38,318 bases of DNA, taken from positions 1 to 38,318 of the forward strand of contig RBNJ01000162.1 in assembly GCA_003990765.1 (NCBI GenBank). The letters are read 5' to 3'. Shown in pieces: positions 1 to 37,515 of the stretch. How positions within the stretch are numbered: the stretch's first letter is position 1; each line of letters begins with the position of its first letter. Both the position numbers and the translations under genes were made by a program. This DNA is from Jimgerdemannia flammicorona (lineage: Eukaryota). The notes under the pieces were generated by a model that was given only the letters and a program-made list of their open reading frames with translations, did no database searches and was not told the origin of the DNA.

Positions 1-400
1 GTATGCAGTCTGTGTGGGATCAAGAGGAGGTCAATGATGAACAAGAAGAGATATTTTTTGGTTGATGGGTTATGGGTTGGTGAGCACACTAACAGGGCAG
101 AAGTTGACAATGTATATATCTGGTCTGATACAGGACTTTATGGCAGAAGAGTGGCTGTATCTGAGCTGTCAATATTTTGTTGATGTCATAGATCCAACAA
201 GTCAATTATCATAGACTATTGCCAATGCAGAATAAAGGCAGTGACTGCATCCTTAGAACAGTCTTGTTGCAGATGGATAATAGTAGTTTGGTGAGTGGTA
301 TACAGCATCTTGGTATCTGTTACATCACTTACTAATTCTTATCTGAAATTTCTCACTGGACTGTTGTCAGAATACTATATTATTATTAACTGAATACCAT
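1..400. mobile_element. Edge of an unidentified decayed repeat
   Basis: No CpG for ~400 bp and TG/CA-rich like the TE island, then an abrupt return of CpG. No motifs recognised. Confidence 0.3.
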
Positions 401-652
401 CGCTTGCTTGCTCATAATGAAGGCTCGTCACTGTTGTCTCACTGGGTCCGGTCAGTCCTGAGTCAGATTGCATTTTCAAAGCCACAAATTTAAGCAGGCA
501 ATTTCGAAGTTCCCCTGCATCCTTAAATGAGCGGATAATAAACCAACAACTGGGAAAAGCCGTCCATAATTAGATTGAGCAATTGCTGCACGGGTAATAA
601 TCGTTTACCTCTCCCTCAAGCTTTATCCCTCTTCATTTGGCATCCCCACACA

Positions 653-1365: not shown

Positions 1366-1433
1366 GCCCATGTGACATGACTTGGTGTGAGCTTACCGCA
1401 CCTTCACGTGACTCTTACCTGATATGCTAATAT
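1366..1433 (+). promoter_or_regulatory. Probable original promoter of the RBBP9-like gene, displaced by the TE island
   Basis: CATGTGACATGAC (~1369) and an E-box TCACGTGAC (1404-1412) lie just left of the ATAT TSD. Removing the transposon places them ~45-85 bp upstream of the ATG at 17764. Confidence 0.35.
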
Positions 1434-3461
1434 GGGGCGCGGTTTTTCAAAAGGTGCCTTAAGGCGATTTTTTAAAAAAATGAGATATTATTAAATCTGA
1501 TAAATGATTAACTTGAGGAATCAGAAAATCCATTTTTTAAGAAAAATATAATATTAAAATAATTAGAAATCAGCAAAACTTGTCAAAGGATGCTAAATAA
1601 TTAAATCTTCATTTAACCTAATTTATAAAAAACCAGTCCTTTTTTTTTTTGGACATCTAAATTGGGGAATACAAATCGAATTTTACAACCACGTGCATAC
1701 ATATGTCAATTTATATAATTCACAGACATTTTTCATTGTATCTTGATAAAAAGACATCTGATTTTAATGATCTTAGGCTTGTTAGAAAGCCCTGAATCAT
1801 GGATTTCTAGAAAAATTTATGGCCTCAAAATAGGATATCCTTTCAGTAATATATGATGGAAAATGTTAATATAAATTTTGTACTTAATATAGTTAGTAAT
1901 AATAAAGTACTACAGTGATGGTAAATTAAATATTTATCCACTTTAATTGAAAATCAAAATAACAAATATATTTATTTCAAGTAAAAAGTTATAATAAAAA
2001 AAAAAACTAAATAACTATAAACTATTTTGATTTTTTTAGATTTAGTATAGATAGAAGAGGATAAAGTTTATTATGAGAATCTTTTCTAACATATTCTCTA
2101 ATAAAATTATATAAATACTACTGATGTTCTACAGAATATCCTATAGCTGAAACTTCTTCTAAACCTATAAGTTATATAGAAAAAATTTCAGTAGTAATAA
2201 TATTATTTCTTATAATTCTGATATATTTTTCACTATTACTTTAAGAATGCTCTTTTACAAGAACTTCTCCCATTTTAGCTAAACTAAAATCAAAATAATG
2301 AAAAGAAAGAAGAGAGGGAAGATTTTTAAAATATTTGCTAAAAAATGAAGACCATACATAAAAGAACACATTTCTTATTTCATCTTCTTCAATAGTAAGT
2401 TGAGGAATATTATAACTATTTGTAGATAATACTCTGATCACAGTTGCTAGATCATCAATTGTATCAATATCAGCAGTTCTAATAATATAAAATATAAATA
2501 AATATAATATAAATAAATATAAATAAATTAAAAACTTACTTAAGAGTTTTTTTAAATAAACCAAAGAAGCTGTCTGAACTAAATTTTGTATATCCTACTA
2601 CTATAAACTTGAGAGTAATATTGATATAAAGACCAATAATAATTCTCCAACACAGATATTGAATCAATGCATTATTCTTATTTTGACCAGAGTAGTTGTC
2701 AGTATGAAGTACTATCTTTTGAGCTTCATAATCTTGTTTTTTAAAATAAAAATACAACTATATATATAAATTAATATTAATATTGAATTTAAAATCTTAA
2801 GACTTTTTATTAAGTTATAACTAAATAATAAATATCTGTGATATTACTGCATCTGCTTCTTTTCTAACAAAATATTTTTCTTTATTCAAAAAAATATATT
2901 AATATGGAATAGCATTATTGCATACTCCAAAGACTTATACTTTTACTGATACCTTGAAATAAATATTACCCTTAAATATAAAAATAATTTAATAAATCAT
3001 TTAACTAATAATTTAAATTGAAATTAAATATAAAAAAGATTGACTAATCTCTTATTGTAAAGAATATAGAATTTATACTTACTGAGCATAGTCAAATGAG
3101 AAATATAATTTAATATCTCTAGAGTTTGCATCAGCATCAGATATACTACTATTAAGCTACTTGAAAGATTGCTTTATATTACTGATATCTTCTTTATATT
3201 GATCATGCTCATTAACTGCATATTAATAATAAGTCAGCTAATTTTTTTTCTGTATAGTATATTCTGATGGTATAAATTTTCCAAACTGTCAATTTTTGCA
3301 AATCCAACAGAGGTCACTTCTTGCTGTTAAAAACTTGATCTCTCTATAATATCTTTTCCAGATAGTATTAAATATTATTTGACTAATGTGAAAGTCAATA
3401 TTTCTGTTATTGAACTTTGCCAATAATTTTCTTTTATTACTGTCTACAGATAAGTAGATAA

Positions 3462-3919
3462 TAGTCTCTTTGTTATGGTAAAAGTTCTGGTCAGATGATA
3501 GTAATCCATATTGTTGACTATATCCTAAGATGAAAGTAACCATCTGTAAGATTTTAATGAAATAGTTAATAAACTTAATACAGTTGCTGACTTCATTAAT
3601 AAATTTATCCTGGTCTTATTCCACTCCATCTTGTTTATCTTGTTCATCTCATCTATCTTGTCTATCTCATCTGTCTTATCTATCTTATCTGTCTTATCTA
3701 TCTGTCTCATCCATCTGTCTCATCTATCTCATTCATCTCACCCATCTCATTTATCTGTCTCATCTATCTTATCTATCTTATCTATCTCATCCATCTTGTC
3801 TATCTTATCTGTCTGTCTCATCTGTCTCATCTGTCTGTCTTATCTATTATCTATCTCATTCATCTTGTCTATCTTGTCTATCTCATCCATCTCATCCATC
3901 TGTCTCATCTATCTCATCC
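3462..3919 (+). repeat. Left copy of a ~458-bp direct duplication flanking the PLE, including a 9-bp tandem array at ~3625-3919
   Basis: tagtctctttgttatggtaaaagttctggtc... recurs at 8402 onward. The copies differ only by transitions and by repeat-unit number. Confidence 0.9.
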
Positions 3920-4422
3920 AGAGGAGGAAGAAGGCCCAGCGGGAGCCAAGGGGGCAAACCCAGAGCCAGTGTCAAAGCGAATAGAAGACATGTGAAAGAG
4001 CATGTATAAGGGAGACGAACAAAGAACATAACTGAAATTGCATCAGCTGTTTATTGCCACATAAAAACGTGGTCCTTATATACAAAATACAATATCCCAA
4101 AAGGGAGGATGCACCACAACTCGGGGTGAACCGAATTAGGAACCACATGACCGCCAGAGATAGGCGGAGATAAAGGGGGAGCCAATCCCAGTTGCAGGAT
4201 AAAAATCACAAACAAACACAAACAAAAAAAATCCAAATTGAGATTAAAAAACATCCACAGACCCCAGAGGGGTAAGCGTGAGTGAGGGGTGAGGCCAAAA
4301 CAGAGCAAGCCACAGTGAGCCCAAGCGAAGCGAGGGGCTGAAGGCAGTGGAGGGGAGTGGAGTGAGGCCGAGACCCCGGAGCGAGCACGAGACCCCAGAG
4401 GGGGCAAGGATGTTTTTTAATC
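3920..4422 (-). repeat. 3' pseudo-LTR of the PLE (~503 bp)
   Basis: Direct repeat of 7578-8080. It begins at the RT stop codon, contains an internal 15-bp inverted repeat (4242-4256 / 4408-4422), and ends inside a copy of the ORF1 5' end. Confidence 0.9.
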
Positions 4423-6366
4423 CTCTTCGGCAGAACTGGAGGCACCAGAAGGTGATGAAAATGCAAAACAAGAGTGATAGATTGAAGAAGAAATAGAAGG
4501 AAGATGTGAACGAGCAATCAGAGGGCATCGGGAAAGAGATGAAAGTCCATGGCATAAAAGAGAAGAGCGCAGGATGGTATCAGGGCATTGAGCAACCCAG
4601 TGAGCACAATCAAATAGTATGACAAGAATTGGGGGTGGGAAAGAAGAGAGGGTACAGAGAGGGTAAGGGGGGAGAGAGGGAAGGGAGGGGGGATAAAGAG
4701 GAGAGAGGAGGGAAGAGCAAACAACAGACTATTCAATAGAAGCAAGCAGATCATGAATAATAGAAATAGGGTAGGCACGACGATGGACCACGAAGTTGCC
4801 AAGAACCCGAACAGCAGACACCCAATTAGAACGATGGGAGCAGTATAGTGCAAGACAATGAGCCTTACTCCAAACACATTCAAGAAGAGTGTAATGAGAA
4901 TGATTGGACAAGAAGTTAGGGAACTGTTGGGAATGGGGAAAATGAGAATAAACAACAGTTCAGAAAGGAGAAAGAGAAATGGAAAGGTCCAAAAAGGGAA
5001 TACTAGTCACACCGCACACCCAGGTAATAGAATGGTGGGGAGGGTAGATGCCCAAGAACACACTAGAGATATCAACATCAGCAACAGTAAAGACAATAAA
5101 GTCATCAATGTATTGGCAAAAGAAGATATCCCCAGCCCAGAATATAATGGAAAGAGGTGAAGTAATATCATGTAATGCATGCAATTCGTGGGCCAGGCCA
5201 ATGAGGTTGGCAAGGGTGGGGGCACAATTCATTTCCATGGCAATACCAGAAGTCTGGTGAAAGGAGCCAAGGGCTGACTCAAAATAATTAGAGCCGCAGA
5301 CGAGGAGCGTAAGCTCAACAATGGAAGCCAATGAAACTGGGGAATCCAAAGGAAAAACAATAGAACCCAAGAAGTGAAGGCAAGTATTGATCTCATCAAA
5401 ACGAATAGCAGTATAAAAGGAGGAGAAGTCACTAGTGGTCAAGTGGGAAAAATGATAAACAGGCACAATGGTGGAGCAGAGAAGGGTGAGCTCCTGAGTA
5501 TCATGAAGAATGGTGTACTCAGGCCCAAGATGGTGTTGTAAGAGAGCCATCCAGGAGAGGAAGAAGCAGGATAACTACTTCGAAATCTTGGTGGTAGGAG
5601 AACTATAAGCAGCTGTAATAGGACGCCAAGCCAAAGTAGGCTTGTGAACTTTAGGAAGAGCATAGAAAACCAGAAGAGAAATATCCGAGGAGGATAAAGA
5701 GTCCTGGAAGAAGTTAAAAATGGGGTTTGCGAATGGGAAATCTGAAAGCAATCTGGCATGAGCCAGAGAAACCCGAAGAAGAGTGAGAACCTCATCCAAT
5801 CTAAGAGCACTATGCTCATAAGCTATGGCTTGAAGGAGGGCAGAAAGGCCATCAAGGTAGAGCGACTTAGGAATAAGTGCAAAACCTTAATTCTTATCAG
5901 TGACTGTGAGCAAGTGTATAGGCAATTGCTTGACCGATTTAAGTATGGTATGTACGGCACAGTCCAAAACTAAGCAAGAGCGAGCATGTCCAGGAATAGA
6001 CAGCAAGCAAGCCATGTCGAGGAATATGCAGTGTGAAGAGATATTGGGAGGGGGGACCCAATCGCTAGGAACAAAATAGTGAGAGAGCATCTCACCATGA
6101 TCTTGAAAGAAAATGGCAAGGTCAAGAGTACACCGAAAATGTGTGAGACGAGCCAGATTGGTGAAGGAGAATTGTGAGGGAGTCGCAGGAAAAACAAAGT
6201 GAGGACCCAAGGATAAGGCAAAGACTTGAAGGGGAGAAAGGGGACAGTCAGCTGAAGAAAAGGGAGGAGATAAAAGAGCTCCAAGAGAAGAGTAAACTCG
6301 AAAGTTTGGGATAAGCAACTGGGAAAGACAAAGGGAGGACAACATGAGGAACCACTCAGGGCGCAC
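4417..6366 (-). pseudogene. PLE reverse transcriptase (ORF2), lacking a GIY-YIG domain
   Basis: ORF-track pieces 5887-6366, 5575-5799, 4960-5550 and 4729-4911 are all in one frame, separated only by in-frame stops. PLE motifs: SLGPHFVFP, TVTDKN, FYALPKVHKPTLAWRPI, TSDFSSFYTAI, QTSGIAMEMNCAPTLANL, QYIDDFIV, IPFLDLSI, thumb ...HRRAYP. The linker PLIARSHLPSIS is followed by stop TAA at 4419-4417. Confidence 0.9.
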
Positions 6367-6431
6367 TAGAAGCGACGACAGAATCTGAGAAGGGATGGGG
6401 ACACTGGGGGAGAACTATACTGGGGGGAAGT

Positions 6432-7649
6432 TTAAGAGTGAGAGGCCTTCCCCTTCCCTCTGACTTTTTTTGAAGGTGGCGAGCCTGATGAATGGGAGCA
6501 CACCCCATCAGAGTGCCAGACCTTGTGGCCACAGGCTTTCATGCAGCCCTTACATTCAGGGGTATGGGTGGAGGAGGCAGAGGAGGAACCGGTAGAGGAG
6601 GCTGAAGGCAAGCGAGCAGCCGAAGGGGCAGCAGCACAAGGAACACCACCATGAGGACAGATGGACTTGGCCGGGTGCCAGTAGGCATGGTGGAGGTGAC
6701 CAGAGCAGACAGCGCAAGGCCAGACCCCGATAGTGCGAGAACCAAGTTGGTGGCCACGCTTGGGGGTAGGGGGAATGGAGGAGGAAGCCTTGGTGGGGGA
6801 GGGGGACCGGGAAGAAGCCGACGAAGCCTGATTGGGCTTGGCAGGAGTCTTGGCAGAGGTCTTGGAGGGGGCCTTGGTGGCGGCAGTGGCGAAGGAATGA
6901 ACCTCAGCATGAGCAGTGGCATGAGCTTCGGCATGGATGGCCTCAGAGACTGAAACCTCAGAGGAGGTGGGCAAGGGAGCAGTGGCGGTGGTGCGAGCAG
7001 CAGCGGCAGCACGTGACAACTCCTGCTTGTGAAGGCGAGTAACAAAAGAGGTGCCGGCAAGGAGGAAATGACATACAGCATCAATGTCAACAGCAATAGA
7101 AGGAACATCTTGGATGGCGAAGCCACAGAAGAGGGCAGTATCTGAAAGGTGGGAGGAGGTGAAGGCCATGAAGGCGGCACAGGCACGATGGAAGGAGGTG
7201 GAAGCGGCAGCAGCGGAAGCAGCAGCAGTATCGGTGGCGGCGAGTTTGGTGGTGGCAGTAGTGGCACAAATCTCTTCAGAGAGGGCTTGGTGGTGGGCTT
7301 TAGGGAGAATAGAGTAGTAGATGGCAGGCAGAGCGACAATGTCGATGTCATGGCGGAGATGAGCCTCCTTGGTAGAGAGGACAAGAACTGACCAGAACTG
7401 AGAGAGGAGTAGATGACCAGAGGGATGAAGGTCTAAGGGGAGAGAAAGGATGGCAGATAAGATGTAGATCTTGAACAAGACAGTGGTGGGGGTGAAGGCG
7501 GGGGGAGGGGGAGGAGGAAGTTCCTCATCCATGAGCTCATTGACAAGGACAGAGGCCCCAAGAGCAGGTGGTATAGCAGAGGAGGAAGAAGGCCCAGCGG
7601 GAGCCAAGGGAGTGAACCCAGAGCCAGTGTCAAAGCGAACGGAAGACAT
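6432..7649 (-). CDS. PLE ORF1: ~405-aa Ala/Ser/Pro-rich protein with two C-terminal CxxC...WH...CxH zinc-binding repeats
   Basis: Uninterrupted ORF (track 6432-7676; likely ATG 7649, MSSVRFDTG). Motifs CAVCSGHLHHAYWHPAKSICPH and CKGCMKACGHKVWHSDGVCSH; basic tail KKVRGKGK. Confidence 0.7.
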   Translation of the reverse strand: MSSVRFDTGSGFTPLAPAGPSSSSAIPPALGASVLVNELMDEELPPPPPPAFTPTTVLFKIYILSAILSLPLDLHPSGHLLLSQFWSVLVLSTKEAHLRHDIDIVALPAIYYSILPKAHHQALSEEICATTATTKLAATDTAAASAAAASTSFHRACAAFMAFTSSHLSDTALFCGFAIQDVPSIAVDIDAVCHFLLAGTSFVTRLHKQELSRAAAAARTTATAPLPTSSEVSVSEAIHAEAHATAHAEVHSFATAATKAPSKTSAKTPAKPNQASSASSRSPSPTKASSSIPPTPKRGHQLGSRTIGVWPCAVCSGHLHHAYWHPAKSICPHGGVPCAAAPSAARLPSASSTGSSSASSTHTPECKGCMKACGHKVWHSDGVCSHSSGSPPSKKVRGKGKASHS

Positions 7650-8402
7650 GTGGAAGAGCATGTATAAGGGGGACAAACAAAGAACATAACCGAATTTGCA
7701 TCAGCCATTTATTGTCATGTAAAAATGCAGTCCTTATATACAAAATATGACATCCCAAAAGAGAGGACACACTACAACTCAGGGTGAACCAAATTAGGAA
7801 CCACATGACTGCCAGAGATAGGCAGAGATAAAGGGGGAGCCAATCCCAGTTGCAGGATAAAAATCACAAACAAATACAAACAAAACAAATCCAAATCGAG
7901 ATTAAAAAACATCTACAGACCCCAGAGAGGTGAGTGTGAGTGAGGGGTGAGGCCGAAATGGAGCGAGCCACAGTGAGCCTGAGCGAAGTGAGGGGCTGAA
8001 GGCAGCAGAGGGGAGTGGAGTGAGGCCGAGACCCTGGAGCGAGCGTGAGACCCTGGAGGGGGTAAGGATGTTTTTTAATCTCGATTTGGATTTGTTTTGT
8101 TTGTGTTTGTTTGTGATTTTTATCCTGCAACTGGGATTGGCTCCCCCTTTATCTCTGTCTATCTCTGGCAGTCATATGGTTTCTAATTCAGTTCACCCCG
8201 AGTTGTGGTGCATCCTCTCTTTTGGGATGTCATATTTTGTATATAAGGACTGCATTTTTACGTGGCAATAATTGGCTGATGCAAATTTGGTTATGTTCTT
8301 TATTCGTCCCCCTTATATATGCTCTTCCACATATCTTCTGTTCACTTTGACACTGGCTCTGGGTTTGCTCCCTTGGCTCCCGCTGGGCCTTCTTTCTCCT
8401 CT
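7578..8402. repeat. 5' pseudo-LTR (7578-8080) plus inverted arm (8066-8402): a palindrome with ~337-bp arms and a 151-bp spacer
   Basis: 8066-8402 is the reverse complement of 7578-7914 and of 3920-4256. Confidence 0.9.
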
Positions 8403-9000
8403 AGCTTCTTTGTTATGGTAAAAGTTCTGGTCAGGTGATAGTAATCCATGTTGTTGACTATATCCTAAGATGAAAGTAACCACCTGTAAGATTTTAATAA
8501 AATAGTTAATAAACTTAATACAGTTGCTGACTTCATTAATAAATTCATCCTGGTCTTATCCCACTCCATCTTGTTCATCTTGTTCATCTCATCTATCTTA
8601 TCTATCTCATCTGTCTTGTCTATCTTATCTGTCTTGTCTATCTGTCTCATCCATCTGTCTCATCTATCTCATTCATCTCACCCATCTCATTTATCTGTCT
8701 CATCTATCTCATCTATCTTATTCATCTCATCTATCTTGTCTGTCTTATCTGTCTGTCTCATCTGTCTCATCTGTCTGTCTTATCTATTATCTATCTCATT
8801 CATCTTGTCTATCTTATCTATCTCATCCATCTCATCCATCTCATCCATCTCATCCATCTGTCTCATCTGTCTCATCTATCTCATTTGTTTCATCTATCTG
8901 TCTTATCTATCTCATCCATCTTGTCTAACTATCTCATCCATCTATCTCATCTATCTCATCTGTCTTATCCATCTCATCTATCTTGTCCATCTCATCTATT
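8402..9000 (+). repeat. Right copy of the duplicated segment (8402-~8885) and continuation of the 9-bp tandem array in a transposase intron
   Basis: Units TCT[CA/TG/TA]TC[CA/TG/TA], consistent with an ancestral (TCTCGTCCG)n. The array lies upstream of the acceptor ttacag|GTGGTT on the minus strand (~8483). Confidence 0.85.
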
Positions 9001-9784
9001 TTATTTGATTTGTTCTCATTCTCTTAAAAAATTAAAAATAATATACATATCTCCAGAGTTTTCCCAAATGTCAATTGTCTGTATTGAATAAGTTCTTCAT
9101 TTCTATATATTCTTTATACAATATCATGTTCTTTGAAATGTTCTTGAACATTATGTAATCTTTTTTTGAAAATACTATATATCAATTCATATATATTTTT
9201 GTATATAGATATATTATAAAAGATATAAGTAATATTATTTTATTTACATTTACCAGTAATGTCAAATTCTTTCAACTGTGAATTTATATCTATAGCTTCT
9301 TTTAAAAAGGCATCTTGAACATCTCTTAACTAAGCAGAAATTTTCTCTAGCTATTTTTCCAAATATTGAAGAGAAAGCTAAGAGTGCTTCAAATAGTTGT
9401 AAGGTTTTTTGTTACAATAATTTAATTTTCACAATTTTTGAATATATATTTTAACTTTCTCCTCTTTTTTCTCTTTCTTTTCTTTCTTTTCTTTCTTTTC
9501 TTCCTTCTCTTCTATCTGCTTATTATCTTTATTGTCTTTTTTGATGATTTGAGTAAGCTTATCTAATACATAAGATATATTATAAAGTAATTATATTTAG
9601 TAAAGTTGTTGAGGTGTTATAATATCTAGTTCCAGTTCTATATTAAATTCAGCAATAAATTCTATATTATCAATTCTGATAATATTAGATTCAACAATAG
9701 GTTCTATATCAATTTCAGTAATATTAGATTCTATATCTAAAGTAGATTGATTAAATATAAATAAAATTATTAGATTAATATATG

Positions 9785-9932
9785 CAAGTTATAAGCTATA
9801 AATTCTAAGCTACTATATAAGTTTTTTTTTTTTATACTAGCTGTTAGCTAAGCCACAAGCCATAAGCTGCAAGCCACAAGCTACTGTAATAACTATAAGC
9901 TATAATAACTGTAAGCTACAATAACTATAAGC
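9785..9932 (+). repeat. 7/10-bp tandem array (AAGC[CA/TG/TA]C), left part
   Basis: aagccac/aagccat/aagctgc/aagctac units; the array continues after the LINE at 15813. Confidence 0.8.
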
Positions 9933-10105
9933 AGGGACTTTTTTTGCTTAAACCACTTAGAGTGAGCTAAGCCACATAGGCATCTTTCAGCAAAAGACAA
10001 TATGTTTTCAAGTTTTTATTTCGAATATACTGGTATACATCACATGGCAGGAGTCTACCTACAAGGTACAATAAGTTTCAAGGAAAACTGTCAAGTTTTG
10101 ATAAT

Positions 10106-11975
10106 ATGGCTAGTCAAGATTTCTCTAGCTCTGAGTATCTGGAGAAGAGAAGGCCCAGTTTGGATATTCTCAAGAGCTTTGCAGCTACTGCAGGGGCTGG
10201 TATAGCTGCAAGAGGGGCTGGTGGGCTAGGGAGAACTGGAGAGATTGAGGTCTGGCATATGGTGGTTGAGAATAGGAGGGCTGCAGCTAGGTCCATGGAA
10301 GTGGAACAGGGGGAGTATAGTGTTGACAGGAAGAGAGGTCAGGTGATGAGTCAGGTGACAGGTCGGGTGGCTGGCAGGAGACAGGGGTCTGGTGGCGTGA
10401 TGCTGGGGACTAATTCTTCTGTAGCTGAGCAGATGGCTGGGGAGAGGACTGTAGGTAGCATAGCTGTACTTGGTGAGATAACTATAGGTATTTTAGGGAC
10501 TAAGAGAAAGATGATGCTGGCAGCTGAGATAGGTGAGTTAGTGGTGAGGCCCTTCTTCTATAAATCAGTATTGATATTAGTGATCTCAGTGAACTTTCTA
10601 AGATTGGTGATGTCAGTGTGGGAGGTTCTGAGACTGGTGGGGGAGGAGGTGGCTGGGGCAGAATCTCTGAAGTTCATCTCTTTGGCAGAGGCTGTGGAGA
10701 TTGGATTTGTGGAGGAGAATATAATGGTGAAGGTACTGAAGAAAGGGATGATGGTCAAGGGTGTCCAGATTGGGATGGCAAGGTGTCTGAGGTGGGATCC
10801 ACGTGCTGTTTGGCTGGTGGTGGAAGGACTGCCAACCCTGGGCAGACAGGAGACCAAGGAGATGGTAGTAGAGGCACTGGGTGGATATGGTGAGATGGTG
10901 GACTTCAGGTTCATGTTCTGGGAGGGCACCAAGTTGAGAAATGATAACTGTGAGGTAATGCTGTGACTGGAAGGCAAGGAGGTGACTGGGCTGGGCCATG
11001 ATTAGCCTGAAGGGATTAGAATTAGGAGATAAGAGTGCAAGGTGTGGAGGAGGAAGAGAGCAGAACAGGAGGAGAAAGAGTTAGCAATTGCTCTGGAGGA
11101 GAGAGAGGCTACCAAGGAGCTGTAAAAGAGGAAGTGAGAGGAGTATGCCAAGGATTGGGTCTGGATTCAGGCAGATGGCAAGCAGAAGAGGTGGAGGAAA
11201 GGGAACTGGGAGTGTCTGCAGGTGGCCCTTCAGGGGGCAGTAGTGGAAGAGAAGGTAAGAATAGAGGCAGCCAAGAATCAGATGGAAGGAGTAGAGGCAG
11301 CAGATGTGTCCTTCTCCCAGCTGGGTGGTGTAGAGGACTTGGCACATGCACTGGTGAGAGGAAAGTGAGCAGATAAGGAGAAGGCTAGTAAAGGAGGCTT
11401 TGAGATTGATATTGAAGTGGTGCTGGAGACTTAGGTAGAGGACACCCATATGGCTGGGGCAGCGAATGTTCATTGAGAGTGCCCAGAAGCTGGTGAGGTA
11501 ATTTATTTAGAGAAAGTAGTGGAGGAGAATGAGCTGGTGGATATGGCTTCTGATGTGTTAGTAGATAGAGAATAACTGCAAGAGCTGAGCAGGACCCCCA
11601 GGCCTTCAACTCCTGGGCCCCTGGTGATGATGGCGGAGAGTTGGTACCAGGCAGTGCTGGAGGAGCTGGCCGAGGAAGATATCAAGGAAGTGGACATGTT
11701 TCATGGATCTCAGGAGGCATGGGAAGGATTTCTCAATGTAGCGATACAGGGGCCTAAGCTGGTGATGGCAATAGTAGCTGCCCTTCTGGATGATGAAGGA
11801 TATGATGTTGATAAGAGTAGAATGGCCGACATCAGGAAGGTGGCAACAGAAAGAGTGGACCTTTTCTGCAGTAGTATAAATGGTGATCGAATCTGGAGGG
11901 TAATTTGTGAGGACCAGTGAGAGATTATTAGAGGAAGGGCTGAGAAGGTGGTGGCGGTCCCAACTGAGCTTTAAA
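10106..11975 (+). pseudogene. LINE ORF1 relic
   Basis: Segment WLVVEGLPTLGRQETKEMVVEALGGYGEMVDFRF...TKLRNDNCEV resembles the RRM-like region of L1/Tx1 ORF1. Multiple stops. Confidence 0.7.
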
Positions 11976-11986
11976 TAATTTTCTTA

Positions 11987-14900
11987 ATGATGATGAACAA
12001 TCTATGTATTTTATTGATCAATGTCAATAGATTGCAGGATAGTGTTAAAAGATGGTGGCTTTTCAGATGGCTTAAAGTCAGGAGGTATGATATTATATTT
12101 CTTCAGGATGTTTGGACTTATGGTGAGTCAGACTATGAGATTTGGAGTAAAGAATGGTATGGTAGAGCAGGTTGGAATATGTAGGTGGGCATCTTGGTTG
12201 ATATAGGCAAAGACAAGTTGGTGGAGGTAGAGAGTTATGGCAACAGACTGATTTGGGGAAGACTAAAAGGAGGGGCAGGAGATGGTTTGACAGTTGGCTC
12301 AGTTTACCTCCCTGCAGTTGGCAGAGAGTAAAAGCAATAGGTTGAGAGATGGCAGGCATGAGATGGTCAGAAGGTAGTTGCTTTGGACATTCTGAGGGGG
12401 GACTTCAATATGGTGCATAATTGAATACTGGATAGATCTAATGGTGGAGCAGGAGTCACGGTATCCTCTGGACTTTCTCAATGGCTTCAGGTGGAGTATG
12501 ACATGGACTTGGTGGATGGCATTCATCAATGACAGGGGGATGAGTTGGGACCTTTCACCTGGTGGCACCCAGTTGGAACAGTATTGGTTGGGATACGAAT
12601 AGATTGGGTACTAGTGGTGGAGTACTGGGGTAATGTACTGGATACTGCTGAGGTGTGCTGGTACTCTTGGTCTGATCACTGGGGAGTGGAGGTTTGTAGG
12701 AGATTCCAAGTAGTAGGCAGTGGTGGAGGGTGCTGGTATCTCAATATGGCCTTACTCAAGAGGAAGAAGGAGAGGGACAATTTTGTGATAGTTATGAAGC
12801 AGAAAGTTATGCGATAGTAGAACGAAGAGCAGTTGATAGCAGAATGGTAGAGTAAATTCAAATATTTGGCTGATGCTTACTAGTGTGATATTGGAGAAGT
12901 GGCTGAGAAAGAACAGAAGGATAAGAAAAGGAGAGTAGAGAAGGGACTGAGATGGCAATTGAAGCTTTTAGAAAAGGGGAACTTATCTGGGGAGGTGTGC
13001 CACTGATTGGTATTAGAGGTGGTAGAGTTGCAGGTGGATTTAAAGGTGTCTGAGACCAGGGTAGTAGATGGTCTGCTGGCCAGGCTGTGAGCTAGATGGT
13101 TGGAAGAAGGAGAGAGGTCGATGAGATATCTGTCTGGTATCTTGAAGGCCAGGAGAATATGACATAGTTGGGTCTTAGTATTGTACAAAGATGGAGTAGA
13201 GGTCTCTGGGATTACTGACATGTTAGGGAAGATATCTGGCCAATGGCAAGCTCTTTGGCAGGATAGTGGAGAGTATGTGGAGAATACTGGGCTTGAGGAG
13301 GATAATGACAATATGGTGAACAGTTGGCCAGTGACAGCGATACCTGAGAATAGGGGAAGCAGTCATGGGGGAGGTATCTCTAGATGAAGTATTAGAAGTA
13401 CTGAGGAAAATGCAGACTGGTTCATCTCCTGGGGAGGATAAGTTGCCCTGGGAATTCTGGAAGGAGTTCAAGGCCAAGTTTGGTGACTGGTTGGTGGAGA
13501 TAGCCAATGCTGTTCAGAAGGAGGATTGCTGGATTAGCAATGATTCCTTGGGGCTAGTGTCTCTTCTATACAAGGAAAAGGGAGATTGATGGGTGTGGCA
13601 TAATTGGTGACCTATCATGCTGCTGAATGTGGATAGAAAGTTGGTGTCAAAGATTCTAGCAGGGAGGATGCAGCAGTATGTTGGTACACTAGTTAGAGAA
13701 GAGCAGTGAGGCTTTGTCAAGGGGAGGCAGATCAGAGATAGTATTGCCTGGGTGCAGAATGTCTTAGAGAGCTGTAGGAGCTGGCAAGTAGATGGCCAGA
13801 TAGTCTTTCTGGATCAAGAGAAGGCCTATGACAGAGTGTGGTGGAGTTACCTAGAGGCTGTCCTGAGGAGGGCAGGGTTTGGTGTAGTAGAGGCAGAGCA
13901 TCTGATGGGCTTGGTATGGAGATACTGAGCAGTGGTAATGATGAATGAATGGTGTAGACCAGAGTTTGCCTTGGAGCAAGGGGTACTACAGGGGGATCCT
14001 CTCTCCCCCCTTCTTTATGTACTTTCTCTAGAGCTTTTGCTAGTAGGGCTGAATGGGTGGCTCTCTGGACTGAAGATGGGAGATGTGGTCTGGCAGCTGA
14101 GTGTCTTTGCAGATGACATAGTGGTAGGGTTGGGTAGTCAGGAGGATGTAGAAGCCCTACAAGAGGGGGTTGGACAGTATGAGAGACTGGCAGGGGTAAA
14201 GTTGAACTGGGGCAAGTATGAGACAATGGAACTTGGTGCTGGCCTGGGAGGCCATGGACAATTCAGACAACTGGTAGCTGCAGGGAGTGCTGTTTGATAT
14301 CTGGGTATCTAGTTCTTGGTGTATGGGACAGTTCTGCCAAGGGAGTGATGGTGTGAATTAATTCAGAAGCTGGAAGGTACACTGGCTGGTTGGTCAGAGA
14401 GGAGCTTCTCCTTGGTTAGCAGGATAGTGGTCTTGAATATATATTGGCTGCCCAAACTGTAGTATCTGGGTTATCATCTAGATTTTCCTGGGTGGGTGGT
14501 GCAGTAGCTGAAGAAGATTGTAGAAGGGTGGTTGTGGCATAGGAGATATCTGCAGATTGGATGGGAGACTTTGATGATGAGGACTTCTGATAGAGGCCTG
14601 GGGCTGGTGGATTTCAGGTACCAGCTGAAGATACTTCAGAGTTGGTGGGGGTGCCAAATGATGGAACTAGGTGAGGAAGGTTGGGGCAGGCTGGCTATGG
14701 ACAATTGGGAGGTCCAGTTCTGCCCTCATGGTGAGGTTTGGAAGGATATGTGGGGCTTGCTTCAGGTTAGGAGTATAGGCAGACTGTGATTTAAGGGGTT
14801 CTGGTGGAGTATTGTAGAAGCCTGGCTGGCCATGGGGTTGGCAGGCCCAGAGATAGAGGTGGGTGAGAACTCTGAGCAGAGGTGGTGGCAACTAAGAGAC

Positions 14901-15620
14901 CTTCACGTTGGTGGCCATAGTCTGAAGGAGTACTCTCTGATTGAGGCAATGGAGTGAATCAGGTCCAGCCCTCTAGAGAGATGACCACCTGGGTGGCAGA
15001 GAGCTGATATTGGTGAAGACTGGGAGTGGGTTCAAATTTGGAATTAGGGAGCCTCGGTATACAAGATGGTGCCACTCAAATACTGAGTGGTTTGGTGGTG
15101 ATTTTTGAGATGTAATGTGATGCTGAGCTATTGGACAGACTGGATGGAGATAGATGGCTGTTGGGACTATGAGTGGTGTAATGAGGTAGATAGAGGAGTT
15201 GTTCAGACACCAGAATATGTTCTGGGGGTCTGCCCAGATGTGGAAGGGTTTTGGTAGAGTTTGGAAGATTACTGGAGCTCAGGGAGGTAAAGGGCAGAGG
15301 ATCTGACCAGTCTGGTGGTCAAGTGCCAGCTGGTAGGGGAAATTGGTGATATATGGGAGAGTCTAAATTAAGTTTTGGGGGTCTAGGTCTTGATGGTGGT
15401 ATATTGGTAGTGGATTTTTGAACAAGACCTATGGATGGGGATTGGAGAGATGGTAGAGTAGTGGAGGTGGCTTCTCCAGGAGGTGGTTCAGGGGTGGTGG
15501 TATCAGGGAAAGCAACTTCAACCAAGGGCCTTAAGAAAGGTACAGGACATTGTACAGAGAAGTCAAGAGTACTTGGTTTTAGATGATCGTAGGGTAAGAT
15601 AGAAGGAAAGAATTGACTGA
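11987..15620 (+). pseudogene. LINE ORF2 relic (APE endonuclease, RT, C-terminal Cys-rich region)
   Basis: APE motifs: LINVNRL, YDIIFLQD, GDFN, RIDWVLV, SDHWGV. RT motifs: SSPGEDKLPWEFW, PIMLLNVDRKLVSKILA, FLDQEKAYDRV, GVLQGDPLSPLLY, VFADDIVV, YLG, GLGLVDF. Many stops. The 3' end is approximate. Confidence 0.92.
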
Positions 15621-15714
15621 AGGGCTCTACTTATGTATATTATGTGATATTAGTAGTAGTTTGTGGTTGGTTGTTATTGTATTAGATAGTTCATAATAAA
15701 GAAGTCTAAGTGAC

Positions 15715-15748
<34 letters not shown>

Positions 15749-15777
15749 AAAACAAAAAACAAAAAACAAAAAAAAAA

Positions 15778-15812
<35 letters not shown>

Positions 15813-15814
<2 letters not shown>

Positions 15815-16055
15815 CAATAATTGTAAGCTACAAGCTGTAAGCTACAAGCTACAAGCCACAAGCTATAAGCCACAAGCTGCAAGCTGCAAGCCATAAGCCA
15901 CAAGTTATAAGTCACAAGCTACAAGCTGCAAGCTACAAGCTGTAAGCCACAATAACTATAAACTACTATAAACTATTATAAGCTATTAAAAGCCACTATA
16001 AGCTACTATAAATTACTACTAGTTACTATGAGTTACTATAAGTACTATAAGTTAT
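15813..16055 (+). repeat. 7/10-bp tandem array, right part (in transposase intron 1)
   Basis: aagctac/aagccac/aagctgc units followed by aactactata-type 10-mers; the intron donor is at 16069 on the minus strand. Confidence 0.85.
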
Positions 16056-16264
16056 AAAAAACTCCTTACCTATGTTCAGCTAGTATATTATTTTCATTAT
16101 CAGAATCTGCATTCTTCTTATTAGTAGAAATATATATAGATATGAGTTTTTGAAAGTCCTCAATTAAAGATATAAGTTCTAGATGAGTTTCAGAGAAAAT
16201 AGAAGTTAAAAAATCTTGTAACATATTGATAGTGTTTTTGAATATATATAGAATATAAATGAGA

Positions 16265-17450
16265 CAGCTCCTTTCTCCACTACCTTACCAGTCATAAGAT
16301 TTGGTAGGCGACCTTCTGAGTCCCCTTTCCCCTATTATTACCCCCTCTACCTCAGGTTGGTTTGCTGTGCCTGTAGAGGCATAGTGAGAGGAGGGCAATG
16401 GTAATGAGTTGCCCCTTTATCGATGTCAGATTGGTGCTTCCTTTACTTTTTCATGGATTCTGGTGCCTTTAGCTGCATCTGGGGTATATCTGTTTTGGTG
16501 CAGCACCTTCTTCCTTTTGCCATTGCCAGTAAGGTATTGTCTCAGTATATCTCAGACTATGTAGGGAGTTGGCCAACCTTGGGTGTCAAGTGCTCAGTGT
16601 AGGTTACCTACAGATCCTCAGTATCTGTAGTGGGGCCCTCTGGCTTTAGCAAGCTTCCTGGCGAGTGCAGTTCTGGCATAGGTGACTGCTTTTCAGATGT
16701 TGTCAGGATGGGAGAGGAGATGGCCATTACAGATAGGAGGAAGGACAATAATGGTGAACCAGTAGGATGCCAGGCTGGGGGTAGTCATCAGAGCTAGGGC
16801 AGATATTGCTTCGGTGGGGCCTTTTGATTGGTATGGCATAATTAGGTGGTAGGTGTCACTATTGACTTCTTTTGACAGTCAGCGGAGTTGGGCCCCAGTC
16901 ATCAGGGGGGGTCAAGAGGCCCAAGGCTACCTATTTCAGGCATCTTGACTGCACTCAACTGGAACTGGGAGCTGATATAGCAATGTGATCGAGGCCTGCA
17001 GACTTGAGTAGTGGGGTATTGGAGGTTTCCTCCCATCTCACATGTAAGTTCTTTACTTATCTCGACTGGGAGAACCAGGCCCTACCCACCGTGTTGTACT
17101 TTGATGAGAGTTTTTTCTTTGTCTATTATTCTCTTTGGAGTGGCAGGGACTATTCTATTTGGCTCAGGCATGGCCTTGTACATACGTTGGGTTCTCAGGC
17201 ATGTACTTTCAGTCATTGGCATATGGTTGGGTTTCCCCTGGTGGTAGAGAGAGCATGGTATGCAGAACGAGGTGCAGGTCTATTTGGCCCTGCTGCACCT
17301 GATATGGTCGAGCTGCTGGACAATAGCTAGCCTAGGTTAATGGGGGGGCAGTGCTTAGTGGGTGGTGGGGGAGGGTTTTGGCCTATATAGTCTAGGTTCC
17401 CTTCCAATAAAAATCCACGGAACATGAGTCCATTAAAAAAAAAAAAAAAA
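16265..17450 (+). mobile_element. 5'-truncated non-LTR retrotransposon (second family, probably L1-like)
   Basis: Perfect 17-bp TSD ATAGAATATAAATGAGA at 16248-16264 and 17451-17467; AATAAA 17406-17411; poly(A) 17435-17450; abrupt GC shift. Only weak ORF2 C-terminal resemblance (QCDRGLQT, YYSLWSGRD). Confidence 0.8.
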
Positions 17451-17763
17451 ATAGAATATAAATGAGATATAGTTGACAGAATAAAAAAGTTGACAGTTTA
17501 TAGCATATAGCATAATATAAATAGTCATGTGACTGACTCAATATACAGTCACTAGGAAAATTAATGAAGCACGCCATAGAGCACCTTTTAACAAAATTTG
17601 CACATTGTGTCTCTAAAGTTAAATTTCTGAACATGTGACTGACTCAGAGCAGTGATAAAAATCAACTTTGGTTTTAATAGATTTTCTGTAATTTCTCGAA
17701 AACAGTCCAGGGGTCATAAGGCACCTTTTGAAAAATTTCACGTCATATTGTCTCCACTTCACA

Positions 17764-19182: not shown

Positions 19183-22100
19183 TCACACCGCCGCACCGAA
19201 TGCCGTATCCTCCAATTTACGACACTTGAGCGAGAACTCCTGCACGACTTCCCTGAACCGTCTTGGGGACCTTGTTCTGCAAAACATTTCCGTACGTCTG
19301 TTAGCGAAGCTCATTGACAACAAAAAAAAATGAACTTGACTGTTCGAGCATGGCCAATACATCAAAGTGCTCTTACCCTAAGATACCCTTCGCAAACGCC
19401 TCCTTCGACGATTGATCGATGTACGGCGACGGGAAAGTATCCTGCAGCATCGCGAAAAGATTTCATAAGTCACTGTGGCGCAGCAAAACGTGGCACGAAC
19501 TCCGCTACTCACCTGTGCGAGTAAAACCTGCAACCATTGTCGGCTAGCCTCGACATACCGCGAGACGAGCTTGTACAGAACGTCGATGAGCTGGCTGCCG
19601 AGCGATCTCGGCAACCGGCCGCCGATGCCCTGATGCGATAGAGGCCCATGGCATATCATCAGATCATTGCGGGTATCAAATTATGCACATGCGGTGAAAC
19701 CCGCCAAAAAATTGAAGACCTACCGCCAGCAGCTCCTGCATTATCCGCATGCCCAGGTTCATCATGACCGTCTCTACGAGCTTGGCCAACTCCGGGTTAC
19801 TCTCGTACTCCTGCCCAACAAAATCGGCCTACAAGGGTTCAAGTTCATTGCATCACTCATTAACTCTGATCCAAGCCCCCTTCCCTCCAACGATACACAC
19901 CATGAAGCTCAGCGCAGATTTGAGCGCCAAACGTTCCTGCAGCCCCATCCCTGCCACAGCGAACATGAGGATAGTGTCGAGCATGTCACCAGGGAGCTGG
20001 TAGAAGGCCAATGGACACCGGCGGATGACCTAGGTGTGTGAATGAATATGGCGTTGGTGATTCTGCGTGCAATGTCAAAATGAGATGAAACGAATTGAAG
20101 AGTGCCGATCGAAAGGGCTTACCCGTGACAGGAGGTTGAGGAAAGAGCTCACGACATCCGGATACTGCTCCATCGCTACTCCATTATCAAACCAGACCAA
20201 AATTAGAACCTCTCTTGATCCCGCACACCTTCACTACTTCAAACCTCAATTCCCCAACCCAACCCAACACGCACCCTCAGTACTCCTGATCCCTTCCAAC
20301 GTCTTGCTCGCCATACCCGTCACCAAGTCCCTGAGCACGTTCCCATGCCCGTCCCTCCCACCATACACAGCCACGACCTGCGACGCGGTGTCGAGCCAGC
20401 ATGCGTACGGGTGGCGCTGGTACGACGTCTGGATCAGGTGTACAAGCTGCGGGAAGGGAACCGAGAGCAGAGGACTCGTGGTCCGGATGCCTGTGTCGAG
20501 GAAGTGGCACAGCGCCTAGCGGAACGAGATAGCGACACCCCAAAAAGGCCGATGAATATTAAAATATCTAAGGGACAATAATTAAATAATCGATTGGAAC
20601 AGACAAACTCTCACCCTCATGACCTCCTCATCCCCGCCCCACACAGCCGCAACCTCTTGCGTGATCTCGCCGACAGCGGTGAGGAGGGCGCGCGCAGGAT
20701 CAGAGCGTTCGAAAACGGATCCAAAGTTTCCACTAGCGAACTGGTCGTAGAGCGCGGTGCGCTCAAGCGATGATTGGTAGTCGTCGTCAGGGGACTGGAT
20801 TCCGCGGCAGCACGCCGTCAGGTACTCGAGCTGCGACAGGATCAGAGGCTGGGCGTGCGCCGGGTCTTGCTGTTAGGCCCGAGGGAAGGGGAAGGGAGTG
20901 TTAGCAGGTTGTGGTGGGTGGAGTGAGTGAGGTGGATGGATATGAACAAACAAACCTTTTTGGATATTAGCAAGGCTTCTTTGAGTGATTGGATAATGTC
21001 ACTGGTCAAAGCCTATGAATGGGGATACCGAGGAACGAGTCATCACCAAATTGTTACACCAGCATTGATTCATTGCGTCACACATAATGCATAAATCAAA
21101 CTCCATACCAGTAACGGCTCGACCATCTTCTCCAGTGGCAGAGCTTGGATCACGTCTGCGATCGACTCGATCACCTTCTGCTTCTCCCTCGGCTATACAC
21201 CCCATTATGCAACGGACCACAGCATCAATACAAATCAACCAATTCACCTCAATCTCATCACCTACAAAATACCTCCCGACCCCATCCCAAACGTACCCCA
21301 CCACCTACCACCCTCAAATCCTTCAAAAACCTACCTGCACGCTCTTTCCAACGACGGCATACATATTTATCAGGCTCCCAATTCCATCGATCAGCGAATC
21401 CCGACACACGTCGCACACGTCCTTGAATCCCGTCGCGGCCGCCGGGGCGACCCTGGGGTCACTCAACGCAGGGATGAGGTAGTTGAGCGCCGGGAGGAGG
21501 AACTCGGGGTGAGACTTGAGCCACTCGGCGTAGGAGCCTGTGGGACGAGAGAGGGGGGAGGGAGGTTAAGCTTCAAGAAACAAGAGATTAAGTGCGATAT
21601 GCGAAGTAAGAGAAGACTACATGCCGATGACCAAGAGCGCCGTGTTCCGCAGCCGGTGGCTCCCTTCTGCGGGCAGCCTCCCAAAGATCTCCGGGCCGAA
21701 CACGCGCGTCATGTATACGTTCTCGTGGCTCGGGACGGCCTCCGAGATGCACTTGACGCAGAAGAGGGTCGACTCGAGGGCCTTGAGGGGAGGTAGAAAT
21801 CAGACTACGTGTTTCAGGGGGTCGGAACCAGTGTTGAGCACGAGACCCATGTAAATATGCGTACCTGCCACCGCATGGCGTGCACTAAATTTAGTTGTGC
21901 AATTGCCATGTCAACGAGGATGGCGAGCATCTGGTCGCGCAGGACGTGGTATGAATTGATGAGTGTGTCACCCACGTCACGGCGGAAGATGCGAAAGCGG
22001 TCCTTGAGGTCTGCAGGATTTTTTTTTTTTTTTGGGGGGGGGGGGTTGTTCGTCGGGATCGGCGTTACTCGATATCAGTAAGCAACGTCCTGACGCGTTC

Positions 22101-24270: not shown

Positions 24271-24368
24271 TAATGGTGGGTTGGGTGTTTGTGGGCCAGG
24301 CCAGCTTCTTTTCTATATGACATGTGGCTTCGTGCGAATCATGTGACACCCTTCTACACTCCGACACC
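24271..24368. promoter_or_regulatory. Compact bidirectional promoter
   Basis: Only 98 bp separate the divergent ATGs (24270 and 24369). The interval contains TATATGACATGTGG and ATCATGTGAC. Confidence 0.6.
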
Positions 24369-25277
24369 ATGAACCACCGACACTCACTGCTTCTGCTCCT
24401 CCCCCTCCTCCTCGCCGTCTTCTCCGTATTTCCTCCATCCGTTCGCGCCCAGGGTGAGATCCCTCCCAGCGTTGTCGTCGACTTGACTGACTCAGATATC
24501 GGCCAACTCGAAAAGGGCGAGTGGTTGATCGAATTGTAGGTCGTTTCCGCCCCTCTCGATCTCGCGCTTACTCTATGCCACCCCCACCCCAAGGTTCAGC
24601 CTCAAACGTTACATCTAAACCAACCGCCCAGCTATGCTCCATGGTGCGCCGCCTGCCACCGCTTCAAAGGGTTCTACGACCTGGCCGCGTTTATGGTCTT
24701 CGACCACGACCCTAGCATCCAGCTAGCAAAGGTCAATGTCGATGACAACCCGGGACTGTCAAGCCAGTTCTTCGCGTTCCGGTTACCCGCCTTCTACCAC
24801 ATCAAGGATGGGCAAGGTAAGCATTATTATTCATAGTATTGAGGTCTACCGCCGCATCACGTTACCGATCACGATTATTCGCTTGCAGTCCGCGAAGCAC
24901 GCATCAGGCTAGATACGCCCCAGGGCGCCATCGACTACCTTAAGCGCCAAGAATGGAAGAATTCCAAAGTGTGGGACAACCTCTTTTCGCCTTTCTCAAC
25001 CTTGTAAGTGCCCTCATTTTCATCTCTTTTCTTCCCATCCGACCCCACCACGTTCTCACTCAACTCCGTCCCCAGCGGCCACTTCATGAACCGGATCGGC
25101 CGCTCCGCAAAGTACATAGTCGACCATCGCGAGGATATCAAGCGGGGCGCACTCTACGTCGGCGTCGCCTGGCTCGCCTACATTGCTTTCGCCAAGGTCG
25201 CCGAGGTAATATCCCTGGTGAAGGTGACGATTCCTGTAGCAGCTGTGGAGGTAGACGAGCCGAAAAAGACGAAGTAG
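24369..25277 (+). CDS. Thioredoxin-related transmembrane protein (TMX1-like ER oxidoreductase), 4 exons
   Basis: Signal peptide; GEWLIEF|YAPWCAAC active site; AKVNVDDNPGLSSQFFAFRLPAFYHIKDG; one TM helix; C-terminal KKTK dilysine ER-retrieval motif. Exons 24369-24535, 24632-24816, 24889-25003, 25076-25277. Confidence 0.88.
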
Positions 25278-37155: not shown

Positions 37156-37253
37156 GATCATCCTTAACATGTCCAATGCTGTGATCTTCCTTAATATGCC
37201 CAATGCTGCGATCTTCCTTAATATTCCCAATGCTGTGATCTTCCTTAATATGC
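37156..37253 (+). repeat. 27-bp tandem repeat (~3.7 copies)
   Basis: GATCTTCCTTAATATGCCCAATGCTGT units. Confidence 0.85.
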
Positions 37254-37515
37254 CGCCAGTAAACCTTAGGGGATGCCTACTGTTGTCGGTTAATATCGTA
37301 GTCGAGTTCCGCGGCACAGGGCATTAGGTCGACGACTCGCTGTCTCCTTTTTGGTAAAAGAATATCAAGGATGTCCGCCACAACCTCTACGCTACAATCT
37401 CTAACCCAATCCCTCCATCGCCTGCCAATCGTGTATATTATCGCGAAATAAATGTACGAACGCCGCCATCCCACTTCTCCCGGCAACAGATGCGCGCAGC
37501 CCCCTTGCGGAGAAA

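Follow-up and report, generated by a model that had tools for sequence, protein, structure and literature searches.

This locus raises the question of how a retroelement that encodes no endonuclease can come to lie at an internal site. It occupies part of contig RBNJ01000162.1 of Jimgerdemannia flammicorona (assembly GCA_003990765.1), of which the analysed stretch of 38,318 nucleotides (nt) is referred to here as the window. The element, a decayed Penelope-like element (PLE) unit of 4483 bp on the minus strand (3920-8402), represents a single dead copy from a deep Penelope-like lineage that occurs in fungi and has no endonuclease. Its value lies in a base-exact footprint of a nuclease-less lineage, i.e. 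two identical ends, a built-in joint and a 457-bp duplication, and is limited by there being one decayed copy and by published precedents for the single traits. The explanation that we tentatively favour, giving it slightly less than an even chance, is that reverse transcription was primed from two pre-existing, overlapping 3' ends and that the resulting complementary DNAs (cDNAs) were joined at a 15-nt inverted repeat built into the element.

Read from 5' to 3' on the minus strand, the unit consists of an inverted partial repeat, a direct pseudo-long terminal repeat (pseudo-LTR), a first open reading frame (ORF1), a reverse transcriptase (RT) frame, and a 3' pseudo-LTR (Table 1). Two traits of the PLE class are present, namely pseudo-LTRs that include the ORF start together with an inverted 5' copy, and an RT with an N-terminal GxKF-like motif, DKx, the RT core, and the thumb. 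The two direct pseudo-LTRs are 90% identical without gaps; 37 of their 51 differences lie at CpG, two are transversions, and 37 of the 62 CpG sites differ between the copies. Both outer ends of the unit fall on the identical element base, 84 nt past the first ATG of ORF1. They have at most 1 nt in common with the target on each side, and homology-guided priming was rejected on this ground. The direct and inverted copies meet at a 14-15-nt inverted repeat that is native to the pseudo-LTR itself; one of its arms contains the RT stop codon, and the 15-nt stem is predicted to close in the sense RNA and in the cDNA alike. The 153-nt loop between the arms (4256-4408 and 7914-8066) is G-rich on the cDNA strand and is built of short repeated words.

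The unit is adjoined directly on both sides by duplicated DNA of the host transposon. The two duplicates (the left copy compared with 8402-8838) show 18 mismatches in 437 ungapped bases, all of them transitions (C/T or G/A), with 12 decayed positions in the left copy and 6 in the right; the far end of the right duplicate is uncertain because the 9-mer tract differs in unit number. With the element and one duplicate excised, the host transposase coding region reads as an open frame through the empty site. From its sequence, the 457-bp repeat is read as a target-site duplication. A pure assembly echo was rejected, as the 18 transitions are spread across both copies. At CpA sites, 12 of 65 differ in the duplication and 6 of 57 in the pseudo-LTRs (Fisher p 0.31), and the ages of the two appear compatible with one event. 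The ratio of observed to expected CpG is 0.39 in the element, 0.17 and 0 in the surrounding transposon, and 1.03 in the gene region to the right. The depletion of CpG in the element and the transposon, and not in the gene region, shows that repeats decay through C-to-T change in this host.

It is quite improbable that the duplication is unrelated to the insertion, i.e. that it reflects a later local rearrangement or an assembly join of two paralogous transposon copies that each carried one element end. The region is repeat-rich, the number of 9-mer units differs between the duplicates, and the duplicates are slightly more decayed than the pseudo-LTRs, all of which such an origin would accommodate. 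However, both duplicates stop exactly at the element, each with C-to-T decay of its own, and the host transposon has a single pair of terminal repeats, each flanked by ATAT (a 4-bp match, weak).

In the favoured explanation, i.e. priming at two overlapping ends, a read-through RNA from a tandem donor would be bound by the ORF1 product and the RT, the latter possibly made by a -1 frameshift. Reverse transcription would start at a fixed site within the element, 84 nt into ORF1, with no homology to the target involved. The primers would be two ready-made 3' DNA ends on opposite strands that overlap by 457 nt, of the kind produced when a replication fork breaks or restarts or when two nicks lie far apart. 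The end at 3918 would be extended through the whole unit and the end on the 8402 side through 336 nt of pseudo-LTR; the two cDNAs would anneal at the 15-nt inverted repeat, and host fill-in would fix the unit between the copies of the overlap. The length of the duplication would then equal the overlap of the two primer ends. A 457-nt overlap without a nuclease would point to ends made by replication or by distant nicks. Overlapping fork ends yield tandem duplications.

With the purified PLE protein of Anolis, reverse transcription begins at fixed positions 111-118 nt within the ORF, without primer homology, and both strands are extended (PMC11167929); carried over from this precedent, each outer end of the present unit would represent one fixed-site RT start. 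Endonuclease-bearing PLEs with a like layout generate duplications of 8-10 bp (PMC3846280).

Two-ended priming is supported by the identical outer ends, the native joint, the abutting duplication, and the restored transposase frame. Several points weigh against it. The reading rests on one copy and a single insertion. The 457-bp duplication and the identical outer ends do support, in this copy, the proposal of the preliminary description that the lineage integrates at pre-existing internal 3' ends, but for the lineage as a whole this one insertion is the basis. At all non-CpG sites, 18 of 155 differ in the duplication and 12 of 207 in the pseudo-LTRs (p 0.055), so that the duplicates lean older. 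Dualen long interspersed nuclear elements (LINEs) also make long duplications (median 900 bp), which are ascribed to two endonucleases (PMC9977147), and the source of the two DNA ends at the present locus is purely proposed. Finally, the three repeat copies vary in 43 columns, in which the odd one is the 3' copy in 20 cases, the 5' copy in 12, and the inverted copy in 11, and the inverted copy may thus derive from the 5' copy, which would also be expected from a fold-back.

This last point bears on a rather unlikely alternative, in which a free cDNA primed itself by folding back at the 15-nt repeat and was patched into a lesion, with a template switch during repair duplicating the 457 bp. The stem is predicted to form in the cDNA, self-priming at such palindromes has been proposed for Penelope (PMC3846280), and the inverted copy is slightly nearer to the 5' repeat (23 mismatches in 322 positions) than to the 3' repeat (31 in 336). 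The closeness to the 5' repeat, however, is equally compatible with a fold-back and with a second priming on the same RNA at its 5' start site. A local fold-back copies the 5' repeat and would continue into ORF1, with no cause to stop at the base that forms the 3' end, and the model provides no primer for the free first strand.

Table 1. Coordinates of the element, its target, and neighbouring features in the window
Feature	Position	Strand	Description
3' pseudo-LTR	3920..4422	-	503 bp; whole 3' untranslated region (RT stop codon onwards), together with a repeat of the opening 84 nt of ORF1
TATATAA in 3' pseudo-LTR	4082		
5' direct pseudo-LTR	7578..8080	-	overlaps the ORF1 start; TATATAA at 7740
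Inverted partial pseudo-LTR	8067..8402	+	336 bp; shares the 14-nt arm 8067-8080 with the direct copy
15-nt inverted repeat in 3' pseudo-LTR	4242-4256 / 4408-4422		encloses the first 181 nt (4242..4422)
ORF1	6432..7661	-	409 amino acids (aa) from the first ATG (7661); 405 aa from the second ATG (7649)
Candidate slippery heptamer A AAA AAA	6465..6471	-	phase fits a -1 shift from ORF1 into the RT frame
PLE-type RT frame	4417..6441	-	N-terminal motif, DKN, RT core, thumb, short C-terminal domain
Left copy of putative target duplication	3462..3918		457 bp; part of the host transposon coding region, with 9-mer repeat tract
Right copy of putative target duplication	8402..8887		far end uncertain (about 8858-8887)
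Host DNA transposon, decayed	1429..17749	-	DUF7869 (E 1.6e-5); terminal inverted repeats 1429-1461 / 17717-17749 (33 nt), 82%
Decayed full-length LINE	about 9960-15815	+	ORF1, apurinic/apyrimidinic (AP) endonuclease (Exo_endo_phos, E 0.033), RVT_1 (E 3.8e-21)
Third insert	about 16250-17450		1.2 kb; GC-richer, poly(A) end, apparent ~19-base flanking repeat (ATAGAATATAAATGAGA...)
Transportin-3/importin-13 gene, intron-rich	about 21000-24600	-	PF24138, PF24140, PF08389

A GIY-YIG profile grown from the Pfam-confirmed domains of PLEs (54 domains) gave no hit in the six frames of the window (best E 1.9). The same profile detects 54 of 226 gathered PLE-type proteins (52 with a C-terminal and 2 with an N-terminal domain) and recovered 52 of 53 domains with half of their residues randomised, which is an upper bound on its sensitivity because the same domains built the profile. 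In Pfam searches, RVT_1 was the sole family found in the RT (E 0.036), and nothing relevant was found in ORF1 or in the C-terminal piece of the RT. Coding room amounts to 73 codons from the ORF1 stop to the N-terminal RT motif and to ~35 from the last conserved motif to the RT stop. The distance from YxDD to the end is 230 aa here and 217, 223, and 227 aa in three relatives of the same clade, compared with a median of 355 aa in the 52 proteins that bear a C-terminal GIY-YIG. All three clade relatives that reach past the thumb end at a like place without GIY-YIG (the end of one of the five relatives, P0002, may be a contig edge, the contig being 1271 nt long), and the other two of the five break off earlier. 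Deletion of a nuclease from this copy was rejected, since the relatives end alike; judged from these sequences, the endonuclease-less state is family-wide in the relatives readable to the end and not a simple loss in this copy. The earlier statements that no endonuclease is visible and that the lineage lacks one are therefore upheld. No GIY-YIG match was obtained in 172 of the 226 PLE-type proteins (some are fragments), which are spread over many deep branches; in environmental data, nuclease-less PLEs look far more diverse than the named clades would suggest.

The ends could also have been made by a borrowed nuclease, as the preliminary description had offered as its second option, with a LINE, an endonuclease-bearing PLE, or a host nuclease nicking the strands 457 bp apart and the element priming there. 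This alternative, which we consider unlikely, has two-ended priming in common with the favoured explanation and differs from it in the maker of the ends alone (acting in trans, perhaps recruited). An AP-endonuclease LINE is present in the same host transposon, and the long Dualen duplications are attributed to nicks (PMC9977147). On the other hand, no GIY-YIG was found in the window, the two primer ends have no common motif, and 457 bp between nicks would need unwinding. Moreover, fungal genomes are said to hold only endonuclease-less PLEs, and no cross-mobilisation was reported in a rotifer (PMC3846280).

More doubtful than priming at two overlapping ends in this one copy, but still conceivable, is the broader proposal that a fungal telomerase-related branch left the telomere without a nuclease and lives on replication damage, repairing a lesion at each insertion with a duplication of hundreds of bases. 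At collapsed or overlapping forks, its RT would routinely extend the two ends from a fixed internal start and seal them via the inverted repeat. If this is true, the canonical inverted layout of Penelope would be the product of the RT alone.

A link to telomeres was sought with 13 telomere-type motifs, and no tandem pair of any of them occurs in the whole window; there is no telomeric repeat at either junction, as had been stated before, or in any of the three repeat copies. The control was a set of metagenome loci recovered by a profile scan (alignment A2), in which 80 loci were kept of 229 confirmed. All are at most 29% identical, none shows the architecture of the clade, and their sole use was to check the telomere and nuclease scans. 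GIY-YIG was found in 7 of the 80, and tandem CCCTAA or CCTAA units occur on the sense strand in 11 of the 73 nuclease-less loci of these distant relatives (L006, L007, L017, L024, L030, L032, L055, L062, L067, L076, and L077). Many of the 80 loci carry terminal direct repeats of the kind expected from collapsed tandem arrays or from circles. Terminal addition to a chromosome end was ruled out, since target DNA runs on at both sides, and the 9-mer tract at the left junction was rejected as a telomere because it belongs to the host transposon and resumes on the right. The site possibly lies within a subtelomeric region, the DNA to the left of base 1 being outside the window.

These observations make it highly improbable that the unit is a displaced ordinary element, i.e. 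a telomeric Coprina type that was stripped of its telomeric repeats or carried inwards, or one whose endonuclease was lost in this copy. A nuclease-less Coprina of similar size with two ORFs and DKN has been published (4.5 kb, 422-bp direct repeats) (PMC13159263), and the DNA left of base 1 lies beyond the window. Target DNA, however, is present on both sides, and the ORFs are directed away from the gene-bearing side, unlike those of telomeric Coprina, which face the centromere (PMC13159263). The three repeat copies are free of telomeric repeats, in contrast to the 11 of 73 nuclease-less control loci with C-rich tandem units, and the clade relatives stop at the same place without a nuclease. 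For this copy, a displaced element is thus largely refuted.

The RT frame contains, in order, SLGPHFVFP (6213), DKN (5898), LPKVHKP (5658), DFSSFY (5430), QTSGIAM (5256), YIDD (5112), and PFLDL (4998), and ends with ...SSSAEED*. The preliminary description was right in recognising a PLE-type N-terminal motif, but the pattern is SLGxxFxxP, one residue longer than the SLGxxFxP given there. It also placed the end of the RT correctly, after the thumb and with the stop codon in the first bases of the pseudo-LTR: the 503-bp pseudo-LTR opens with the last two codons, GAT TAA (4422-4417), and the stop codon occupies its bases 4-6. The copy is dead, with four internal in-frame stops (5889, 5577, 4962, and 4731), and one more stop lies upstream (6417); aligned to the intact relative P0002 (45% identity), the frame is free of frameshifts. 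A Foldseek search with a model of P0002 gave TERT as the first match, weakly (E 1.5e-6, TM score 0.39) and with other polymerases just behind, and a sequence search of the PDB gave no match.

Besides P0002, the nearest proteins are P0006 (Gigaspora margarita), P0077 (Racocetra fulgida, partial), P0007, and P0078; two of these five clade relatives come from Glomeromycota fungi. They form one branch with the RT of the window, with a support of 0.993 in a tree of 215 rows (11 of the 226 proteins were dropped as too short) and of 100/98 in a tree of 44 rows, which were chosen by hand (LG+G4 without mixture, midpoint root, no TERT outgroup, long-branch warning) and do not include a labelled Coprina. 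In the 44-row tree, the clade falls outside the branch (98/95) that holds all 13 C-terminal GIY-YIG proteins, and its relation to the two N-terminal-nuclease proteins stays open (88/67). It is also separate from ten unlabelled long single-ORF nuclease-less proteins, which may resemble Coprina. The single rotifer protein in the tree (P0223, not labelled Athena) lies far off on a long branch. DKN is found in all 5 clade members that cover the site, whereas 36 of the 52 nuclease bearers have DKG. The search for longer fused forms yielded 5 proteins of 1183-3375 aa, all 26-27% identical and none a close relative; lengths of 712-1182 aa were covered by general searches for relatives only. Among viral contigs, none of 38 pattern matches was confirmed.

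The separate ORF1 of 405 aa described earlier was confirmed, that length being counted from the second ATG. The protein is rich in Ala and Ser, with a helical middle and a basic C-terminal patch, and contains two related zinc-knuckle-like Cys/His motifs (6716-6657 and 6554-6498), so that it is predicted to be a gag-like nucleic-acid-binding (RNA-binding) protein. It has no Pfam family, and no homologue was found among the 226 gathered PLE-type proteins or the 80 metagenome loci. In Atlas, its scores do not exceed 0.80, and the mere lead is a cluster with zf-CCHC in 41% of its members (score 0.77). Its single-sequence fold was uninformative (pLDDT, a predicted local confidence measure, of 38), and a novel nuclease fold in ORF1 may go undetected. 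As to expression of the RT, an in-phase slippery heptamer occurred in the last 90 nt of ORF1 in 534 of 20000 codon shuffles, and an in-frame ATG at 6345 offers an alternative start. The sequence suggests that the RT may be made by a programmed -1 frameshift at the A7 run, which would require the TAG at 6417 to be a later decay.

Hammerhead ribozymes in the pseudo-LTR are a trait of PLEs that is absent from Naiad and most Chlamys elements, and fungal PLE hammerheads have been described (PMC4209133). In the present element, there was no hammerhead match in Rfam up to E 5 and no core motif by pattern, although CpG decay could mask one; the Rfam scan gave one match only, at chance level.

Among known systems, eight PLE clades are listed in a 2026 preprint (10.64898/2026.07.22.740005). 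The closest layout is that of Pen2a_Av of Adineta vaga, a typical insertion of an endonuclease-bearing Penelope, which has two direct pseudo-LTRs with the first ORF codons, a TATA box, and a shorter inverted pseudo-LTR that overlaps by 15 bp (14-15 here). Its single ORF, however, includes GIY-YIG, and its duplication is 9 bp long, compared with two ORFs, no nuclease, and 457 bp here (PMC3846280). In the same source, Arkhipova et al. 2013 concluded that the Pen2a_Av layout does not occur in nuclease-less PLEs of fungi and protists; the present copy shows the direct-plus-inverted arrangement that was denied there to fungal nuclease-less PLEs. The element is a PLE that works like a canonical Penelope insertion without a nuclease. 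The C-terminal GIY-YIG of Penelope/Poseidon, Neptune, Nematis, and Hydra is absent from it.

Of the Coprina traits, the lack of an endonuclease applies to the present element, and telomeric repeats and attachment to chromosome ends do not; the comparison was made on published descriptions. Coprina-1_Alen of Ascochyta lentis is likewise fungal and endonuclease-less, with two ORFs, DKN, ~4.5 kb, and direct repeats of a few hundred bases, but each of its 13 copies occupies a chromosome end, bounded by telomeric repeats, its ORFs face the centromere, and its ORF1 is a coil protein (PMC13159263). By contrast, the present element has an internal site without telomeric repeats, an inverted copy, a long duplication, and Cys/His motifs in ORF1. 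Athena/Terminons of bdelloid rotifers also have no endonuclease. Their ORF1 and RT are linked through a frameshift with a pseudoknot, to which the candidate A7 heptamer may correspond here, with the ATG at 6345 as an alternative; they are rotifer-specific and attach to telomeres via reverse-complement telomeric repeats and hammerheads (PMC8557442, PMC3846280). The present element does not belong there, its named relatives being from Gigaspora margarita and Racocetra fulgida and telomeric repeats being absent.

PLE-X of the Chlamys group (Chara braunii, Selaginella) resembles the present element in having no identified endonuclease and in being non-telomeric (genome-wide in Chara, in 28S ribosomal DNA in Selaginella), and differs in its CxC motif and canonical hammerheads; Chlamys RTs have a fingers insertion (PMC8557442). 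Compared with PLE-X, Naiad, and Chlamys, the present element has no N-terminal GIY-YIG (a domain that PLE-X has lost), no CxC before the N-terminal motif, and no detected hammerhead, and it lacks the fingers insertion, its motifs A and B' being 59 aa apart (76-83 aa in two N-terminal-nuclease proteins). One Chlamys family of Chara has an upstream zinc-knuckle ORF, and the mechanism by which nuclease-less PLE-X reach internal sites is stated to be unknown (PMC8557442). Outside PLEs, Dualen-4b_cRei and R9 LINEs have comparably very long target duplications (a median of 900 bp for Dualen, 126 bp for R9), but they have endonucleases of their own, belong to an unrelated RT clade, and have no pseudo-LTRs (PMC9977147).

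Singly, these traits have thus already been published: two ORFs in Athena and Coprina-1_Alen, the repeat layout in Pen2a_Av, and a dispersed distribution without a nuclease in PLE-X of Chara. With these precedents (Coprina-1_Alen, PMC13159263; genome-wide PLE-X, PMC8557442), the surprise is less than first stated; features that the preliminary description does not cover are the 457-bp duplication, an inverted pseudo-LTR and the 14-15-nt joint formed there, two zinc-knuckle-like motifs, and the slippery site. The literature covered, which did not extend to the founding papers (2007, 2017) or the supplement of PMC8557442, contained no nuclease-less fungal PLE at internal sites with long duplications and no Glomeromycota clade. 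Since the original target is still readable, it gives both junctions to the base as well as the spacing of the two primer ends, and the question of Craig et al. 2021 (PMC8557442), how endonuclease-less PLEs reach internal sites, becomes testable. If siblings prove alike, the distribution of duplication lengths would be a direct read-out of the DNA lesions used, and the short intact RTs of the clade (P0006 and P0007) are candidates for nuclease-free, homology-free priming by a telomerase relative in vitro.

The location of the element inside a DNA transposon, as originally described, is confirmed by the DUF7869 match and the terminal inverted repeats. The host transposon, with one pair of terminal repeats and ATAT on both flanks, has collected three inserts. 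We take the ATAT flanks to recall the AWWT duplication of Sola1 elements. The LINE, with a long poly(A) tail, is inserted in an (AAGCTAC/T)n tract of the transposon, and the third insert, without a Pfam family in six frames, is possibly a non-autonomous retroposon. That the surroundings consist of housekeeping genes holds for the right side, with transportin-3/importin-13, but not for the left, where the 1.4 kb beyond the transposon contain no Pfam family. Pfam families were found in 3 of the 19 stretches scanned, all three from the transportin-3/importin-13 gene. On the minus strand of window positions 1-600, a stop-riddled frame without a Pfam match contains an SDQIYTL motif reminiscent of LINE RTs, and the DNA left of the host transposon is suggested to be a repeat rather than a gene. 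Tandem repeats of 30 bp and 27 bp are located within the gene region, at 28976-29184 and 37156-37254, respectively.

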